Assembly: GCA_017631585.1 (NCBI GenBank)
Contig: JAGBSZ010000003.1
Span: 1 to 41,580, forward strand
DNA from: Bacteroidaceae bacterium
GTDB taxonomy: Bacteria > Bacteroidota > Bacteroidia > Bacteroidales > Bacteroidaceae
Length of the DNA stretch: 41,580 nucleotides
Reading direction: 5' to 3'
Both the position numbers and the translations under genes were made by a program. Shown here piece by piece: positions 4,062 to 13,048 of this stretch (positions are counted from its first letter, which is position 1; each line of letters opens with the position of its first letter). The notes beneath the pieces are model-generated. The model was not told the DNA's origin, searched no databases, and was given only the letters and a program-made list of their open reading frames with translations.

Positions 4062-5786
4062 TTATCGGGTAAGTTTTGTGTGTATGCTCTCTATCTGCAG
4101 CTGAAGTTCACCGTGCTTGTAGGCATTTTCCTCGAGGGTGTAGCAGATATCGAAAGATTGTTTCGATTTGATATATTTTGCCTGACGGCTCTGACCGAAT
4201 GCTATGCCGTTGAATACTTTATTCGACATATCATCGACAAGTTCAAGTTTTATATGTTCCTGACGGCGACCTACAACCTTGCTTGTTCCGTAGTCGCAGA
4301 CGTTATGTGTGCAGAATACAGGCTTGGGGTTGTGAGGACCATGAGGCGAGAATTTCTTGAGGTCGTTGAAGAACTTGCGTGTTATCTGATGGAAACCAAT
4401 TTCGGCATCGATGTCTATTGTTGGCGATGTCTGTTCAGGCAATATGTTCTGAGTGACAAACTCCTCGAAACGTGCCGCAAAAGCCTCGATATTCTCCACT
4501 TTCAACGAGAAGCCGGCTGCATAAGTGTGACCTCCGAAATTGTCGAGCAGGTCGCGGCAGCTCTCCATAGCCTTGTAAAGGTCGAAACCGGTAACCGAAC
4601 GCGCAGAACCTGTAGCAATATCTCCCGTACATGTTATAACCACAGCCGGACGATGATAAACCTCGGTAAGGCGCGATGCGACAATACCTATCACTCCACG
4701 ATGCCAGTCAGGGTTGAAGATTACTATTGCACGACGCTCCTCGAAACTCTCAAGACCGGCAACAATATTGTTTGCCTCCTCGGTCATACTCTTGTCGATT
4801 TCCTTACGTGCCTCGTTGAACTCATTTATCTGATAGCTCATCTCAAGTGCCGCCTGCAAATTGTTCTCAATGAGCAAATCTACAGCCATTTTGCCCTGCT
4901 GTATGCGTCCTGAAGCATTGATACGGGGACCAATCTTGAAAATTATGTCATTTATGCTTATCTCCTTTTCTTCCAGCCCGCAAACATTGATAATAGCCTT
5001 GAGACCAATGCTCGGGCTATGGTTTATCTGCTTTATTCCATGGAAGGCAAGTATTCTATTCTCACCCACGATAGGAACAAGGTCGGAAGCGATACTCACT
5101 GCCACAAGGTCGAGTAACGGATATAGCTGGTCGGCAGGAATGCCGTTATCCATGGCAAAAGCCTGCATAAATTTGAAGCCGACTCCGCAACCTGAAAGAT
5201 GCGGACAAGGATATGTTGAATCGACACGTTTGGGATTTAGGATAGCCACGGCACAGGGCAACACCTCATCGGGGACATGGTGGTCGCAGACGATAAAGTC
5301 GATACCCAATGATTTTGCGTATGCTATCTCCTCTATAGCCTTTATACCACAATCAAGGACAATAATCAGCTTTACATCGGTGGAATATGCATAATCCACA
5401 CCGCGCTTGGAGATACCATAGCCGTCCTCGTTGCGGTCGGGGATATAATAGTCGATATTCGATGAGAATTGTTGCAGGAATTTATACACCAATGCAACGG
5501 ATGTTGTTCCATCGACATCGTAATCGCCATACACCAATATACGTTCCTTTTTACCGAGAGCCTTGTTAAGACGCTGCACAGCAATGTCCATGTCATTCAT
5601 AAGGAACGGATTATGGAGCATGCTCAATTTGGGACGGAAAAAGTTCTTTGCATCAGAAACAGAAGTGATATCCCTTTTCACAAGCAGACCGCACAGGACC
5701 GGACTGATATCCAGTTCCGCCGACAGTGTGTTTGCCAACACCATCTGCTCATGCGTCAAGGGTTCATATTTCCATTTCTGCTCCAT
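4062..5786 (-). CDS. recJ: single-stranded-DNA-specific exonuclease RecJ
   Basis: DHH family motifs (YGDYDVDGTTS, VLDCG, CDHHVP) and the DHHA1 motif GGHTYAAGFS; 574 aa. The stop is 2 nt from the recQ start. Confidence 0.95.
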   Translation of the reverse strand: MEQKWKYEPLTHEQMVLANTLSAELDISPVLCGLLVKRDITSVSDAKNFFRPKLSMLHNPFLMNDMDIAVQRLNKALGKKERILVYGDYDVDGTTSVALVYKFLQQFSSNIDYYIPDRNEDGYGISKRGVDYAYSTDVKLIIVLDCGIKAIEEIAYAKSLGIDFIVCDHHVPDEVLPCAVAILNPKRVDSTYPCPHLSGCGVGFKFMQAFAMDNGIPADQLYPLLDLVAVSIASDLVPIVGENRILAFHGIKQINHSPSIGLKAIINVCGLEEKEISINDIIFKIGPRINASGRIQQGKMAVDLLIENNLQAALEMSYQINEFNEARKEIDKSMTEEANNIVAGLESFEERRAIVIFNPDWHRGVIGIVASRLTEVYHRPAVVITCTGDIATGSARSVTGFDLYKAMESCRDLLDNFGGHTYAAGFSLKVENIEAFAARFEEFVTQNILPEQTSPTIDIDAEIGFHQITRKFFNDLKKFSPHGPHNPKPVFCTHNVCDYGTSKVVGRRQEHIKLELVDDMSNKVFNGIAFGQSRQAKYIKSKQSFDICYTLEENAYKHGELQLQIESIHTKLTR

Positions 5787-9000: not shown

Positions 9001-11703
9001 GGTTTGCAGTTCGACTATGTAAACACCGATGCCGGCACACATACACTGCGCCTTGCTATCGACGGCAAGACACACACAAGCACATCTTCAAAACAAAGTC
9101 TGGAGGTTGCAGTTTCTGACCCACAGCGCACATTTTCATTCGTGCAGAGCGGTGAGAACAAGGGTATCACATTCAGTAATTTCATTGTAAAAATAAAGAA
9201 AGACACAAGAGTGCCTGAGATTGCACAGGAGATTTTCACCACAGCTACAGCCAATGATATACCTTACCGCATCCCTGCTATCGCAATGGCAAAGAACGGT
9301 GATTTGATTGCTGTTGCCGACTATCGTCACAGCCGTGCCGATATTGGTATGGCAAGCTATGGTCGTATAGACCTTCATGCACGCATAAGCAAGGATAACG
9401 GTGCAAACTGGGGCAACCGTTTCTCTATTGTTGACGGACAAGGCTCAAGTTCTCCCGACTTTATGCATGTAGGCTTTGGCGACCCATGTATCGTTGCTGA
9501 CCGCGAAAGCAACCGTGTTCTTGTGCTTAGCTGTGCCGGAAATGTTTCATTCCCCAACGGAACACGCAACAACCACCAGAACATAGCACGTTTCTACAGC
9601 GAGGACAACGGTGCCACATGGAGCGAGCCTGTTGACATTGCAGATGCAATATATGCAATGTGGGACAACAGCAACAACCACGGACCTGTACGCGCAATGT
9701 TCATCGGTTCGGGAAAGATTCACCAGAGCCGCTATGTAAAGGTAAACAACTACTATCGTCTGTACTGCGCTGTGCTTTTGAAGAATGTAAATAACATACA
9801 TACAAACTTTGTACTCTACAGCGACGACTTTGGCGGTAGCTGGGATGTTCTTGGCGGTGTTGAGAACGCCCCCGTGCCAAGCGGTGGCGACGAGCCTAAG
9901 GTTGAGGAGCTTCCGAACGGTAACGTTGTAATAAGTTCACGTATAAATGGCGGACGTTACTTCAACATATACACATTTACAGACGCAGAGAAAGCAGAAG
10001 GTTCATGGGGTGCTATGGCAACATCAAACAGCAGCAACAATGGTGTTGTGGCACAAGGCAACTCATGTAACGGTGAAATAATGATTATCCCCGTTGTACG
10101 CAACGAGGACAAGGCAGAGATGTGGCTTGCACTGCAGTCGTTGCCATTCGGTAACGGACGTGCCAATGTGGGTATCTACTACAAGGAACTTGCATCGGGT
10201 GCCGACTACAACACTCCTGCAAACTTCGCAAAGAATTGGGACGGTCGTCATCAGGCATCATTCCTGGCATCTGCATACTCTACAATGTGCTTCCAGAAGG
10301 ATTCTACAATAGCATTCCTTTATGAAGAGGACACATACGGCATCAACGCATACGGTGGCTACAACATCATATACAAGAACTACAGCCTTGAGCAGATTAC
10401 CAACGGCAAATACTCGGTTCTCAAAGGCAGAGAGCCTGAAGCACAGCCCGACCAGCCAAGCGATGCAACAATAGCAATGGTTGCAGAGGCAAAGAGTCTG
10501 CTTAAACTGAAAGGTGTGGGCTACCCTGCGACAGAACCACGCGAAACACTTAAGGCTGCAATAGCTGTTGCAGAGGAGAATCCTACTGAGAGCGCAGGCA
10601 GCGTGCTTGAAGCCGCTATCGAGGCATACCTTGGAACAACAGATGTGCAGTTGCCTGCCGACGGTGAGAAATATACACTCACCATGGTGGCGAAGAACGG
10701 CAACCGTTTCTACCTCAACTACACAGGCGACGACATTGCAATGGTAGCACGCGGTGATGAGGAGTTGCCCGAGAGTGCGCAATTCTTATGCAAGGATAAC
10801 GGCGACGGAACAGTAACCCTCACCACCAACGATGGCAAGTATCTTGTTTATCACACAAAATATGCCGGTGTGGACTGGTTGCAGAACAGAGGTGACACCG
10901 ACGGCTTGCAGGATGAGGAAAATGATATGACAAAGATTACCTTTGCCAAAATAGAGAATATCAACAATGTTGTAGCCAATGACAATAAGGATGTTTTCGG
11001 CATGCTTACATGGTATAGCAAACGCGGATACGACACCGGAAAGAATGAGGAGTGCTACGGATATATGGTACTAAAGAGCGACGGTAGCGACTATGATGGC
11101 GCAAGCGCACCATTCTGGAACGACAACTACTCATCGGCGTTCCTTGTAGAAAAGGTTGTAGTAGCACCTGTACAGTACCGCATAAAATCGGTTTCACAGA
11201 ACAAATATCTGAACATCGAAGCTGTCAATATGAATAACGCTACAGGTCCAAAGGGCTCGGTAGGCCTTGCGAATTATGCCGAAAACAACAATCAGATATT
11301 CACATTTGAGGATGCCGATGACGATAAGGTATATATTGTATCGGCAGAAGGCTACTACATTGTATGCCGTCAGTGGAACATAGATGCGAGCAACCAGGGC
11401 TTAAAATCACCTCTTGGCATAGAGTACAAGAACGATACAGAGTTCTACATTATGAACGGTTCACAGTACTTCAAGGTTGGTCCGGTGGATGGCAACGCAA
11501 GCAGCTATTATCCATACTGCGATGCTCCATTCAGCAATGCCGAACTATGGGTACTCGAAGAGGTTGGAGCAGCTACCGCTATTGAGAAAGTGGAAATAAG
11601 AGATGAGAAAGAAGAAATCTTCGACCTCACCGGTCGCCGTGTGAATGAAATTACCAAAGCCGGTATTTATATTATTGGTGGTAAAAAAACACTTGTGAAA
11701 TAA
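6034..11703 (+). CDS. secreted multidomain exo-glycosidase: GH20 beta-N-acetylhexosaminidase fused to GH33 sialidase, with lectin-like modules and a T9SS C-terminal sorting domain
   Basis: The start is placed at MKKLLTTALLALSLCFTQAVQA (signal peptide, ATG 6034) rather than the track start 5971. GH20 signatures: RGYMHDVGRSF (from 6493), HWHLTENQAWR, PEIDMPGH and HIGGDEV (6889-6909; the D-E catalytic pair at 6901-6906). GH33 signatures: YRIPAIA (from 9265); Asp-boxes SKDNGANW (9388-9411), SEDNGATW (9598-9621) and SDDFGGSW (9820-9843); then ..AFLYEED.. . Helical linkers occur at about 8070-8310 and 10460-10630. The tail ..EEIFDLTGRRVNEITKAGIYIIGGKKTLVK (about 11584-11700) is a typical Por/T9SS CTD. 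Confidence 0.9.
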   Translation: MKKLLTTALLALSLCFTQAVQAKVTHLLPKPQVIELTNGNAFALGRTVTITDPTDCTLLREFFTDNGCTIADGGIPVTVTLVTSIEGAYDYELYGYENESYSLEITADAINIKAVTKTGVIRAVQTLSQLAEGYDGTPQLESLTMTDWPAFKLRGYMHDVGRSFITTEELIKQIKLFSRFKINTFHWHLTENQAWRFEVKAYPQLTSNASMTRFAGQYYTQEDCKAVMAAAKKYGIVVIPEIDMPGHSEAFKRAMGYDMQSTDGKKALKKVLDEVVEVFADAPYIHIGGDEVATTAAYLNEMIAYVESKGKKAGIWNRINGINQSDLNASITQMWASSGTLAAGKPNIDCRYNYTNHFDVFADLVGIYKSNIYYRQQGDPEVAGTLSCAWNDRKTPTQEDIIIQNNVYANVIASGERAWIGGGKEYIEKGGTTLPNSGKEYDEFADFERRFLFHKANSLKNEPIAYVKQTNVRWRITEPFPNGGDMNASFAPETEGLKESYTVNGTTYGTGIATGAGIYLRHTWGNNTVPTYYGTTNHNNVTSYAWTYVYSDKTQTVGAQIEFQNYGRSEKDSAPDAGKWDRKGSRIWLNDSEILPPTWDNTGVGINNEVDLKNENFTARKPIQVTLKEGWNKVFIKLPYVGASGVRLNKWMFTFVLTDLDGKNAVEGLVYSPNKRMDVVAEQLGATITEIKREIANSTGEQPGQYSPELAEDVNAVIAEIEATLDTTMNEEERAAQLAQLNAAFETFKASLATAKINQPKASNSEVSYYYTMCTPQRENRYASSNGANADMTGNTTVSDASKWKFTLRNDGKYNIINKSNGTYVSPASSNNTALRTQANEPASGWELKEAATQGLFIIVSGSAQFNQTNNSSLGYKVYNWGSGTNTTDTGCQYLITEVETIEEGGEVTPPAEEDDVTSVEILASKGQYTASNANGTWHSRWESNEVTGFSFAASANNMTTSGDCIAGYSGQSQSSTYTITAPAGWMVTGLQFDYVNTDAGTHTLRLAIDGKTHTSTSSKQSLEVAVSDPQRTFSFVQSGENKGITFSNFIVKIKKDTRVPEIAQEIFTTATANDIPYRIPAIAMAKNGDLIAVADYRHSRADIGMASYGRIDLHARISKDNGANWGNRFSIVDGQGSSSPDFMHVGFGDPCIVADRESNRVLVLSCAGNVSFPNGTRNNHQNIARFYSEDNGATWSEPVDIADAIYAMWDNSNNHGPVRAMFIGSGKIHQSRYVKVNNYYRLYCAVLLKNVNNIHTNFVLYSDDFGGSWDVLGGVENAPVPSGGDEPKVEELPNGNVVISSRINGGRYFNIYTFTDAEKAEGSWGAMATSNSSNNGVVAQGNSCNGEIMIIPVVRNEDKAEMWLALQSLPFGNGRANVGIYYKELASGADYNTPANFAKNWDGRHQASFLASAYSTMCFQKDSTIAFLYEEDTYGINAYGGYNIIYKNYSLEQITNGKYSVLKGREPEAQPDQPSDATIAMVAEAKSLLKLKGVGYPATEPRETLKAAIAVAEENPTESAGSVLEAAIEAYLGTTDVQLPADGEKYTLTMVAKNGNRFYLNYTGDDIAMVARGDEELPESAQFLCKDNGDGTVTLTTNDGKYLVYHTKYAGVDWLQNRGDTDGLQDEENDMTKITFAKIENINNVVANDNKDVFGMLTWYSKRGYDTGKNEECYGYMVLKSDGSDYDGASAPFWNDNYSSAFLVEKVVVAPVQYRIKSVSQNKYLNIEAVNMNNATGPKGSVGLANYAENNNQIFTFEDADDDKVYIVSAEGYYIVCRQWNIDASNQGLKSPLGIEYKNDTEFYIMNGSQYFKVGPVDGNASSYYPYCDAPFSNAELWVLEEVGAATAIEKVEIRDEKEEIFDLTGRRVNEITKAGIYIIGGKKTLVK

Positions 11704-11882
11704 ATAAGTTGTTAAAAAGGTCAACTACTGCGTTACGCTTGCCGTCAAAATCCTCATTTACCAATCAGTAAACTGCGTTTTTCCAGCGTCGCAAGCCTTG
11801 TATTTGAACCTTTTTATCCCACTTATTATAATGCGGAATGTAGGGGCGGGGTTAGCCCGCCCATGCAAACACTGCAAACGCC

Positions 11883-11941
11883 AACCCCCTCCGAGGCAAG
11901 CCTCTCGTCCCCCTAAAACATGGGGACAATATAGGCAAACC
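11883..11941 (+). repeat. two-hairpin structured module, copy A1
   Basis: Sequence AACCCCCT-[GAGG CAAG CCTC hairpin]-GTCCCC CTAAAACAT GGGGAC-AATATAGGCAAACC. Collinear with copy A2 at 12456-12517. Confidence 0.5.
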
Positions 11942-12040
11942 CTGCCCCTACAGGTTGCAATCCACCTGCAAAAGGTAATGTCAAAAAGAAATCCGGCACC
12001 GTTTGAGCAACAGCGCGTGTCAGTTCCAATTGAGGAATAA

Positions 12041-12172
12041 GAACAAATTTGCTTTGCAAATCGACAATACCGCCAGCAATTAGTCGTGAGTAGCACAGCC
12101 GAAGGTTGTGCCTCACGGGATGCGACAAGGCGGTGTTGTCAAAGTGGCAGACACAAGCGACAAACGAGCGAC
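12041..12172 (+). ncRNA. candidate structured RNA, tandem unit 1 (small hairpin 12047-12061 plus three-tier hairpin 12063-12140)
   Basis: Outer stem GACAATACCGCC (12063-12074) pairs with GGCGGTGTTGTC (12129-12140). Middle stem CGTGAG (12085-12090) pairs with CTCACG (12112-12117). Apical stem GCACAGC (12093-12099) pairs with GTTGTGC (12105-12111). Repeated at an exact +132 nt offset in unit 2 with compensatory changes. Confidence 0.45.
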
Positions 12173-12274
12173 GAACGAATTTGCTTTGCAAATCGACAAT
12201 ACCGCCAGCATATAGTCGTGCGTAGTGCAGACGCAGTTTGCACCGCACGGGATGCGATAAGGCGGTGTTGTCAA
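12173..12274 (+). ncRNA. candidate structured RNA, tandem unit 2 (small hairpin 12179-12193 plus three-tier hairpin 12195-12272)
   Basis: Blocks identical to unit 1: 12178-12210 equals 12046-12078 (33 nt) and 12259-12274 equals 12127-12142. Stems: 12195-12206 with 12261-12272, CGTGCG with CGCACG, GTGCAGA with TTTGCAC. Confidence 0.45.
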
Positions 12275-12455
12275 TGCGATAACCCGAGCCGAGGAGTGAG
12301 TGACTTGCTCAACCCGTGTGCCGGGCGCTTTGGTTCTTTGCCTTTAGCCCCTACGGGCGGCGACCGATGGTTCACGCGATGAAAGAACGAAGAAGAAAGA
12401 CTACAAAATAAATATACGATAAAAGAAATAAGGTTAAAGACTGCGGAAGAATATT

Positions 12456-12517
12456 AACCCCCTGCAATGCAAGCATTGCTGTCCCCCTAAAACAGGAGGA
12501 CAATACAAGGGCAAACC
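12456..12517 (+). repeat. two-hairpin structured module, copy A2
   Basis: Sequence AACCCCCT-[GCAATG CAAG CATTGC hairpin]-TGTCCCCCTAAAACAGGAGGAC-AATACAAGGGCAAACC. It has the same order, the same CAAG loop and the same CTAAAACA loop as A1, but a different first stem sequence. Confidence 0.5.
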
Positions 12518-12548
12518 AAGATTCCGCCGTGCTAGGTGGGGATAAACA

Positions 12549-12596
12549 GCCTGCGTCTTTTGGGCAGACACACCAGTCTGCCCAAAAGACGCAGGC
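12549..12596. terminator. perfect 21-bp stem / 6-nt loop hairpin between the non-coding island and the sufE stop; probable terminator
   Basis: GCCTGCGTCTTTTGGGCAGAC - ACACCA - GTCTGCCCAAAAGACGCAGGC. It lies 24 nt downstream of the minus-strand sufE stop. The flanking tracts are weak: TGTTTAT after the stem on the minus strand, AAAAAG on the plus strand. Confidence 0.5.
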
Positions 12597-12619
12597 AAAA
12601 AGAACTATTCCTCTTTATA

Positions 12620-13048
12620 TTATAAGTTCATTTTTGTCTTGAATGCCAGAGCATACAATCGCATCTGCTTTATCATTGCAACAAGACCATTGCTACGGGT
12701 GGGTGAAAGATGTTCCTTCAACCCTATTGCCTCAACAAAATAAGGCTCTGCAACAAGAATCTCATCGGGTGTATGTCCTGAATATACCTTTATAAGCAAT
12801 GCGACAATACCTTTTACTATAAGCGCATCGCTCTCGGCACGAAAGATTATCTTTCCATCTACAACATCAGCCTGAAGCCAGACGCGACTCTGACAACCTT
12901 CGATGAGGTTGTTGTCGGTTTTGTACTCCTCGGGCAACGGTTCCTGTTCGTTTCCCAGGTCAATGAGCAACTGATAACGGTCGAGCCAATCATCAAAACC
13001 TGTAAATTCTTCTATAATCTCGTCCTGTATATCTTTTATATCTGCCAT
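12620..13048 (-). CDS. sufE: SufE-like cysteine desulfuration (sulfur acceptor) protein
   Basis: 142 aa with SufE family features: ..DDWLDRYQLLIDLG.., the conserved EGCQSRVWL cysteine loop, and ..SDALIVKGIVALL.. . Confidence 0.88.
   Translation of the reverse strand: MADIKDIQDEIIEEFTGFDDWLDRYQLLIDLGNEQEPLPEEYKTDNNLIEGCQSRVWLQADVVDGKIIFRAESDALIVKGIVALLIKVYSGHTPDEILVAEPYFVEAIGLKEHLSPTRSNGLVAMIKQMRLYALAFKTKMNL

Follow-up and report, generated by a model that had tools for sequence, protein, structure and literature searches.

A dispersed, strand-specifically structured hairpin repeat family of uncultured ruminant-gut Bacteroidaceae

What two similar hairpins are doing one behind the other between two convergent genes, and whether such a pair is an RNA gene or something else, is the question raised by a contig assigned to a Bacteroidaceae bacterium (JAGBSZ010000003.1, assembly GCA_017631585.1), the first 41,580 nucleotides (nt) of which were analysed here and are called the window. 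An earlier note on this DNA had described a multi-tier hairpin with compensatory changes that fitted no known RNA family, and had proposed a plus-strand RNA, possibly transcribed independently from each 132-nt unit. Judged from sequence comparison, the two tandem hairpins are instead two copies of a previously undescribed 82-nt dispersed hairpin repeat family. The repeat is dispersed, forms arrays and is structured in a strand-specific manner; its working form may be DNA (mobility) or RNA (an element of the 3' untranslated region, UTR), and these two are non-exclusive.

Direct comparison of the two units returns the identical blocks given in the earlier note (12046-12078 with 12178-12210, and 12127-12142 with 12259-12274), and between the hairpins at 12063-12140 and 12195-12272 exactly the 12 differences it listed, eight of them making up four compensatory pair changes as stated and the remaining four lying at unpaired positions. 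The three stems described for unit 1 do pair, and the wobbles T12068-G12135 and G12098-T12106 are retained in both units. A repeat search of the window finds one 102-nt direct-repeat family here, with a spacing of 132 nt and 87% identity. Folded as plus-strand RNA the units reach −43.6 (unit 1) and −42.8 kcal/mol (unit 2), with z scores of −8.2 and −6.0 and none of 200 shuffles folding as well, against only −34.8 and −34.5 kcal/mol for the minus strand, so that the plus strand is better by 8-9 kcal/mol; DNA folding parameters give the same fold as RNA parameters.

Unit 1 occupies 12061-12142 on the plus strand (82 nt; a covariance model match of 100.9 bits, the edges being set by around 100 BLAST matches), and its helices are P1 (12063-12074 with 12129-12140), P2 (12076-12078 with 12123-12125), P3 (12085-12090 with 12112-12117) and, beyond a 2-nt bulge at 12091-12092, P4 (12093-12100 with 12104-12111) closed by a GAA triloop. 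Unit 2 (12193-12274, plus strand, 82 nt, 105.3 bits) folds likewise but belongs to another apical subfamily. Its identity is 96% with copies from other species (L014, L012; family loci are numbered with L) and only 87% with unit 1, and because it is closer to those than to its neighbour the pair is not a recent duplication of one unit; the two are rather different apical subfamilies with a common leader and outer stem. The leader is a mini-palindrome, ATTTGC-TTT-GCAAAT, at 12046-12060 for unit 1 and, by direct comparison identical, at 12178-12192 for unit 2 (both on the plus strand); BLAST depth marks it as an optional part. The plus-strand spacer between the units, 12143-12177, holds an 11-nt near-repeat, AGCGACAAACG, and is found in about a quarter of family copies.

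That the true repeated unit is 82 nt, TCGACA...TGTCAA, with sharp edges, is seen from BLAST depth over around 100 homologues, as matches fall from around 100 across the unit to around 34 across the leader and 25 across the spacer. A strict pattern based on the loops found 10 loci in eight metagenome-assembled genomes (MAGs), all labelled Bacteroidaceae bacterium and from buffalo and yak hindgut, and a degenerate pattern matched at least 120 metagenome contigs. With a covariance model built from 24 copies, cmsearch gave 166 matches in 100 sources, and within the 41.6-kb window the model matches only the two known copies. A search with nhmmer gave at least 220 non-overlapping copies in 128 loci of ruminant-gut Bacteroidaceae MAGs and metagenomes. 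Away from the match that triggered retrieval there is around one further cluster per 49 kb (about 40-50 kb), and extrapolation from this flanking density suggests some 60-80 clusters per genome. Neither pattern found a match in viral contigs, and phage records and plasmids likewise gave none, so the repeat is not phage- or plasmid-borne as far as these collections go. The repeat is restricted to a narrow clade of uncultured ruminant-gut Bacteroidaceae with cargo genes of the type IX secretion system (T9SS) type.

The case for compensatory evolution of the hairpin, which at first depended on two copies, now has 137 distinct copies as its basis and is borne out by them. Across these, 94% of cells are paired and 27 of the 30 pairs have changes on both sides; none of 500 shuffles reaches the observed pairing values and slid controls are only 23-41% paired. 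An alignment of 24 copies made with MAFFT only gives the same structural picture, and RNAalifold independently predicts the identical fold, with 20 of 29 pairs compensatory. The larger alignment, of 150 sequences, was fitted to the model, and some of its contigs are redundant. The unit can be written 5'-UC-GACA...UGUC-AA-3', with four helices and the internal loops A / GAWWA and WWRGU / GG, the fourth, short helix GCA(W)/(W)UGC being located between the outer and middle stems. Near-invariant are the UC and AA flanks, the A before P2, the WWRGU / GG loop, the GAWWA of the 3' side and the 2-nt bulge (NA), as are two wobbles, a U-G at the base of P3, the middle stem, and a G-U in P4 (131 of 137). 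The triloop is G-N-A in 82 of the 137 copies, and C(GNA)G is a notably stable DNA mini-hairpin.

That the fold matches no known RNA family was confirmed as well. Rfam 15, run on 11600-12700 with E values up to 10, returned chance-level matches only and none to the hairpin motif, Rfam at gathering thresholds over the whole window returned a tRNA-Ser only, and the family has no description in Rfam. The c-di-GMP-II-GCG model does match 12241-12323, the 3' half of unit 2 together with the 3' arm that follows it, weakly (24.6 bits vs a threshold of 47.9, E = 0.11), which was judged to be chance. To our knowledge dispersed structured repeats, well studied in Proteobacteria and pneumococci, are undescribed in gut Bacteroidota. 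A search of the literature on Bacteroides and Prevotella repetitive extragenic palindromes (REPs), miniature inverted-repeat transposable elements (MITEs) and RNA motifs found no description of the family, and a preprint on UG27 arrays was the sole conceptual relative.

Which nucleic acid carries the fold is a separate matter. With the fixed P4 wobble left out, the copies have G-U in 142 cells and A-C in 31, and since neutral decay would give equal numbers one strand must be under selection; the fold is maintained on one strand only. Of the proposal that this is a plus-strand RNA rather than a cruciform the strand specificity is thereby upheld, together with the two near-invariant wobbles, and the RNA part is not, because the asymmetry of G-U alone cannot separate RNA from single-stranded DNA.

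Placement along the chromosome gives further clues. Only three of 157 arrays overlap a long open reading frame (ORF), the rest being intergenic, and the flanking genes are unrelated (tsaD, ftsH/rsfS, guaA, prmA, an EF-type GTPase with EF-Tu/EF-G domain matches, glycosidases, TonB-dependent receptors and AbiE). Where both neighbours could be resolved 21 arrays lie between convergent genes, 19 are in tandem sense, 10 in tandem antisense and four in divergent settings. Arrays within 60 nt of a stop codon are 38 sense vs 8 antisense, a bias that is gone beyond 60 nt and that persists as 24 vs 7 (p = 0.003) once related gene ends are collapsed; upstream of genes the figures are 30 sense vs 13 antisense. 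Terminator-like sites are seen downstream of arrays in 29 cases and upstream in 14. Antisense copies are as intact as sense copies in a decay comparison. Sixteen of the 157 arrays follow genes with a T9SS C-terminal sorting tail (...GIYIVNGKKVLVK and then the stop), 13 sense vs 3 antisense. One such tail ends in the window (11614-11703), and L019, L036, L051, L055, L066, L075, L095, L111, L112, L117, L133 and L135 are loci with such a gene end or with a module like that at 11710-11825; the association is perhaps 2-4 fold enriched, a figure that is unnormalised and is not claimed as an enrichment.

The arrays themselves are in evident turnover. Close neighbouring units are head-to-tail in 70 of 82 pairs, frequently with no more than 3-20 nt between them. 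Around one family copy in three has the leader, its place being taken elsewhere by unrelated small stem-loops, some of them made from the last part of the coding sequence upstream. The number of units varies between orthologous sites (one at L030 vs three at L123), some sites carry unrelated subfamily sequences with the folds intact (L021, L065, L092, L118, L120), and at one the cassette is inverted (L121 vs L043 and L089). At the ends of the unit the only flank preference is for W (W|TC...AA|W), and target-site duplication, sought as matching flanking k-mers with k = 2-6, is at chance level (17 of 156, then 1, 3, 0 and 0). Longer direct repeats, of 12-71 nt, flank 19 of 114 arrays vs 1 of 114 in the control, which indicates either tandem duplication of the hairpin plus flank or an insertion process that duplicates its target. 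In many cases these repeats duplicate the last codons and the stop of the upstream gene. Where a hairpin begins 6-14 nt beyond a stop codon, the final 5-35 codons of the gene and the stop often recur behind it with the frame still open, and gene ends duplicated beside a hairpin are seen at L082, L127, L095, L021, L092, L112, L133 and L135. At L006 an ORF of 126 amino acids (4773-5153) that has sigma-70 region 2 only ends around 140 nt upstream of a hairpin unit, and may be an extracytoplasmic function (ECF) sigma gene truncated at a repeat insertion.

Overall the reading we favour, with a probability of roughly 0.55, is that the family is a structured repeat like the REPs and bacterial interspersed mosaic elements (BIMEs) or like BOX, whose hairpin would act single-stranded and would be amplified via a trans-acting protein. 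REP elements are both a DNA-level repeat and an RNA-level element. A protein encoded in trans would recognise the single-stranded hairpin and copy or move it, by a chemistry that may be REP/RAYT-like (RAYT, REP-associated tyrosine transposase) or IS200/IS605-like, of the HUH/Y1 type acting on single strands and leaving no target duplication. Local tandem duplication of a hairpin with its flank, along with exchange among the copies, would then account for the growth of arrays, including the 132-nt pair of the window. The copies that survive are found mainly just 3' of stop codons, in sense and more often upstream than downstream of terminators; the transcripts of the preceding genes therefore probably include them at the mRNA 3' end, where a stable hairpin could act as a barrier to 3' exonucleases, as with REP elements. 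The window pair itself is one ordinary array of the family inside a composite of about 500 nt that is present at two or more loci of the same species.

Several points weigh against so REP-like a reading. Among around 670 kb of flanking DNA (Pfam on 28 proteins, 560 ORFs clustered all-vs-all) there was no transposase, recombinase or reverse transcriptase, so that the trans-acting partner is purely an inferred one; the only recurrent family among the 560 ORFs is one linked by the T9SS C-terminal domain. No REP or IS200/IS605 end comes near the complexity of a four-helix hairpin of 82 nt with conserved loops. A bias of orientation relative to genes that is confined to the 60 nt behind the stop would be expected from a function at the RNA level, and not from fork-linked transposition of single-stranded DNA. 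There was no clean pair of empty and filled sites among the orthologous loci compared; at the sufE locus L091 of a related species there is a 67-nt gap after sufE, but the neighbouring gene also differs and so it is not a clean empty site. The per-genome copy number is extrapolated, and because the retrieval patterns fix some loop bases the conservation there is inflated and decayed copies are under-sampled. A more novel reading, and one which we regard as rather doubtful, would make the hairpin the recognition module of an undescribed, clade-specific nucleic acid-protein system, either a homing mobile element or a dedicated 3' UTR signal. In the homing form a single-strand mobile element would insert in sense within the first few dozen bases after stops and duplicate the 3' end of the gene, giving the long and variable flanking repeats; in the RNA form the signal would have its own binding protein and might be tied to T9SS-secreted proteins.

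The most probable of the other explanations, although still a tentative one, is that the hairpin works primarily as RNA, in cis within the 3' UTR, where a dedicated RNA-binding protein would recognise it or RNase III would cut it, controlling the stability, termination or processing of mRNA 3' ends, perhaps released as 3'-UTR-derived small RNAs, with multiplication driven by host use at many genes and DNA spread being secondary. The sense bias beside stops (38 vs 8, or 24 vs 7 independent gene ends) and also upstream of genes, the more frequent placing of arrays before than after terminator-like sites, the 13 vs 3 split after genes for T9SS C-terminal domains and the 8-9 kcal/mol by which the plus-strand RNA folds better all speak for it, as do the conserved unpaired purines, fixed 2-nt bulge and two invariant G-U wobbles, which are typical of RNA motifs with protein or tertiary contacts. 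However around a quarter of gene-proximal copies are antisense and equally intact, many copies are distant from gene ends or past a terminator (the window pair begins 358 nt after the stop of its upstream gene), an orthologous site can be occupied by unrelated subfamily sequences, and the triloop is GNA, where stable RNA hairpins usually have a GNRA or UNCG tetraloop.

Three narrower readings each fail specific tests. That each 132-nt unit is a small-RNA gene driven by a Bacteroides-type promoter in the leader was the proposal of the earlier note, and TTGCTTTG at 12049-12056 is indeed one mismatch from the −7 box TAnnTTTG within a leader identical in both units. The mismatch removes the A at position 2 of the box, no TAnnTTTG occurs in 11704-12620 on either strand, and the distance to the base of the stem at 12063 is 6 nt and not the 7 first given. 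By inspection there is no TTTG at the −33 distance; around two copies in three are without the leader, unrelated mini-hairpins standing elsewhere in its place; many array units lie 3-20 nt apart, too close for a promoter to fit between them; the hairpins are not followed by a U-tract, and a sigma-70 and terminator scan is blank at the units. A dedicated, independently transcribed RNA gene also sits badly with dozens to hundreds of copies dispersed beside unrelated genes, and we consider it very improbable. The note had itself taken dozens of dispersed copies with target-site duplications as the mark of a mobile repeat; the dispersal is found and the target-site duplications are not. Little better, and still highly unlikely, is that the units are template RNAs for a trans-encoded reverse transcriptase, UG27-array- or retron-like, giving single-stranded DNA hairpins and spreading by retro-insertion. 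Head-to-tail units in Bacteroidota that are diverse in sequence and conserved in structure do resemble UG27 arrays (bioRxiv 10.64898/2026.09.22.753630), strand specificity would fit, and flanking duplications of variable length are reminiscent of target-primed insertion; but the UG27 motif AUCN7UANAG is in none of 137 copies, the units are 82 and not 135-167 nt, the loci examined have no reverse transcriptase, accessory genes or prophage context, viral contigs, phage records and plasmids are without matches, and the copies are dispersed beside housekeeping genes. The least probable of all is that these are integron attC-type or other tyrosine-recombinase sites recognised as folded single strands, for which strand-specific arrays with irregular bulges and a structure more conserved than sequence might be quoted. 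By inspection neither strand of the ends TCGACAA/TTGTCAA matches the R''/R' boxes RYYYAAC/GTTRRRY, the gaps of 3-100 nt between sites have no ORFs and hence no cassettes, no integrase is among the flanking genes examined, and the sites are dispersed over the chromosome.

Two convergent genes of the window stand 917 nt apart with the units between them, a plus-strand gene for a GH20/BNR/ricin protein with a T9SS-type C-terminal tail (1,889 or 1,910 amino acids, starting at ATG 6034 or at a TTG) that ends at 11703, and sufE on the minus strand (12620-13048); the pair starts 358 nt after the GH20 stop codon and behind other repeats. These are a module at 11710-11825 that recurs in around 10 loci, and a GTAG-type REP hairpin, TGTAGGGGCGGGGTTAGCCCGCCC, at 11839-11862 with an inverted partner arm 76 nt away at 11934-11952, an arrangement like a REP doublet forming a hairpin (REPIN). 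The same GTAG-type REP recurs in many loci (L036 5896-5977, L095, L111, L076, L103) and in L036 sits at the apex of a hairpin unit. A RAYT-type system separate from the 82-nt hairpin family is thus suggested for these genomes. The gap also holds a 25-nt direct repeat (11907-11931 and 12481-12505), and a direct-repeat family at 11883-11941 and 12456-12517 (core GTCCCCCTAAAACAKGRGGACAATA, 80% identical over around 60 nt) brackets the composite and is found in a few other loci. Immediately after sufE a perfect 21-bp inverted repeat with a 6-nt loop (12549-12596) resembles a bidirectional intrinsic terminator; an Rfam match to mir-4520 on both strands falls on this palindrome and was set aside as spurious.

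The composite element, around 500 nt on the plus strand (11953-12453), consists of a 5' arm, the two hairpins, a 3' arm, a further hairpin and an A-rich tail ending ...AAGGTTAAAGACTGCGGAAGAATA. The 5' arm, CCGGCAC-CG-TTTGAGCAA at 11993-12010, pairs with the 3' arm, TTGCTCAAC-CC-GTGTGCCGG at 12305-12324, in a long-range inverted repeat that brackets both units, and in the paralogous composites L008 and L014 of another MAG CCGGCAC/GTGCCGG is kept and the inner arm is swapped for the complementary TAAAAATAGT/ACTATTTTTA. After the GTGCCGG arm comes a variable plus-strand hairpin at 12332-12388, GGTTCTTT...AAAGAAC with a 36-nt insert, GCCTTTAGCCCCTACGGGCGGCGACCGATGGTTCAC, whose sequence differs in each composite and yet stays complementary (L006, L007, L011, L013, L014, L136). 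Such a context is that of a minority, around 6-8 of 129 arrays, and 109 of the 129 are without the leader, 3' arm and tail motifs. In sample ERZ27256965 this species carries two composites, 94% identical and at separate loci, with the order GH20, composite, acyltransferase at L136 and the order 427-amino-acid gene, composite, sufE at L002, while the window contig links GH20 to sufE via a single composite (join at 11934-12123). The join may represent a recombinant strain or an assembly collapse across the repeat, because the GH20 and sufE loci are separate in other assemblies of the species. In another strain, L005 (4458-4546, compared with window 11964-12043), the composite stands in the opposite orientation beside sufE for an identical SufE protein, and the 12549-12596 palindrome is missing; either the element was inverted there or it inserted independently between these genes.

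A family with clear covariation (27 of 30 pairs), two fixed wobbles, conserved loop bases and a transcription-linked orientation bias gives a handle for finding the protein partner, and a way of asking if repeats of this kind serve as selfish DNA, as host RNA elements or as both. There is also a practical side, as these repeats break metagenome assemblies, many contigs ending inside copies, and can cause chimeric joins; the window contig, linking two loci that other assemblies of the species keep apart, may be an example.

How the family relates to known systems can be stated in some detail. REP/BIME and REPIN elements are those of Enterobacteria and Pseudomonas and are mobilised by RAYT Y1 transposases, the cognate RAYT gene being single-copy and flanked by the repeats. 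As with these, the family consists of high-copy extragenic imperfect palindromes that form arrays without target-site duplication and are kept within a lineage; most stand behind genes or where two genes converge, probably co-transcribed, and would act as single-stranded hairpins. A REP has hundreds of extragenic copies per genome, beside which the family shows at least 220 copies in 128 loci and around one cluster per 40-50 kb. It differs in that its unit is 82 nt with four helices and conserved loops where a REP has 20-40 nt, and in that no conserved 5' GTAG is present, the unit starting with TCGACA and G-N-A-G occurring only at the P3/P4 junction (as GTAG in 65 of 137 copies). Its arrays are head-to-tail (70 of 82) and not alternating or inverted doublets, no RAYT is among the genes in the examined flanks, and the intergenic regions that hold the hairpins also hold a distinct family of classical GTAG-type REPs (window 11839-11862). 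The BOX element (boxA-boxB(n)-boxC) of Streptococcus pneumoniae is similar as a modular mosaic intergenic element with variable tandem middle modules, stable predicted structure and a place in transcribed regions, and the 5' arm, two hairpins, 3' arm and tail of the window follow roughly its A-B(n)-C layout; sequence, host phylum and module structure are however unrelated, and the hairpin of the family is mostly alone (109 of 129 arrays). PATEs (palindrome-associated transposable elements) of IS200/IS605 and Correia or MITE elements share the non-autonomous, structured and intergenic character, and a PATE is also strand-specific and without target-site duplication, to which the conserved TC... 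and ...TCAA ends fit. A PATE has two different subterminal hairpins and inserts 3' of a fixed tetra- or pentanucleotide. Against this the family is a single hairpin and not two distinct ends or terminal inverted repeats around a core; a duplication, of TA or of anything else, is absent, and W|TC...AA|W is all that the target sites have in common. A MITE or Correia-type element does not fit, as the flanks have no target-site duplication above chance. TwoAYGGAY RNA and similar motifs also present a covariation-supported hairpin, many per genome and associated with repeat arrays, in contrast to which there is no similarity of sequence or structure to the family. The UG27 reverse transcriptase ncRNA arrays of Bacteroidota phages are tandem, sequence-diverse hairpin units of 135-167 nt with conserved internal-loop motifs, AUCN7UANAG and UUYA bracketing a central stem, and have an adjacent reverse transcriptase and two accessory ORFs, usually in a prophage (bioRxiv 10.64898/2026.09.22.753630). 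Units are gained and lost between related loci in UG27 arrays and in the hairpin family alike, whereas the family disperses chromosomally at tens of sites and has no adjacent reverse transcriptase or accessory genes. The family stands nearest to REP/BIME and BOX in its behaviour and to the UG27 ncRNA arrays in concept, and fails the defining features of each of these.

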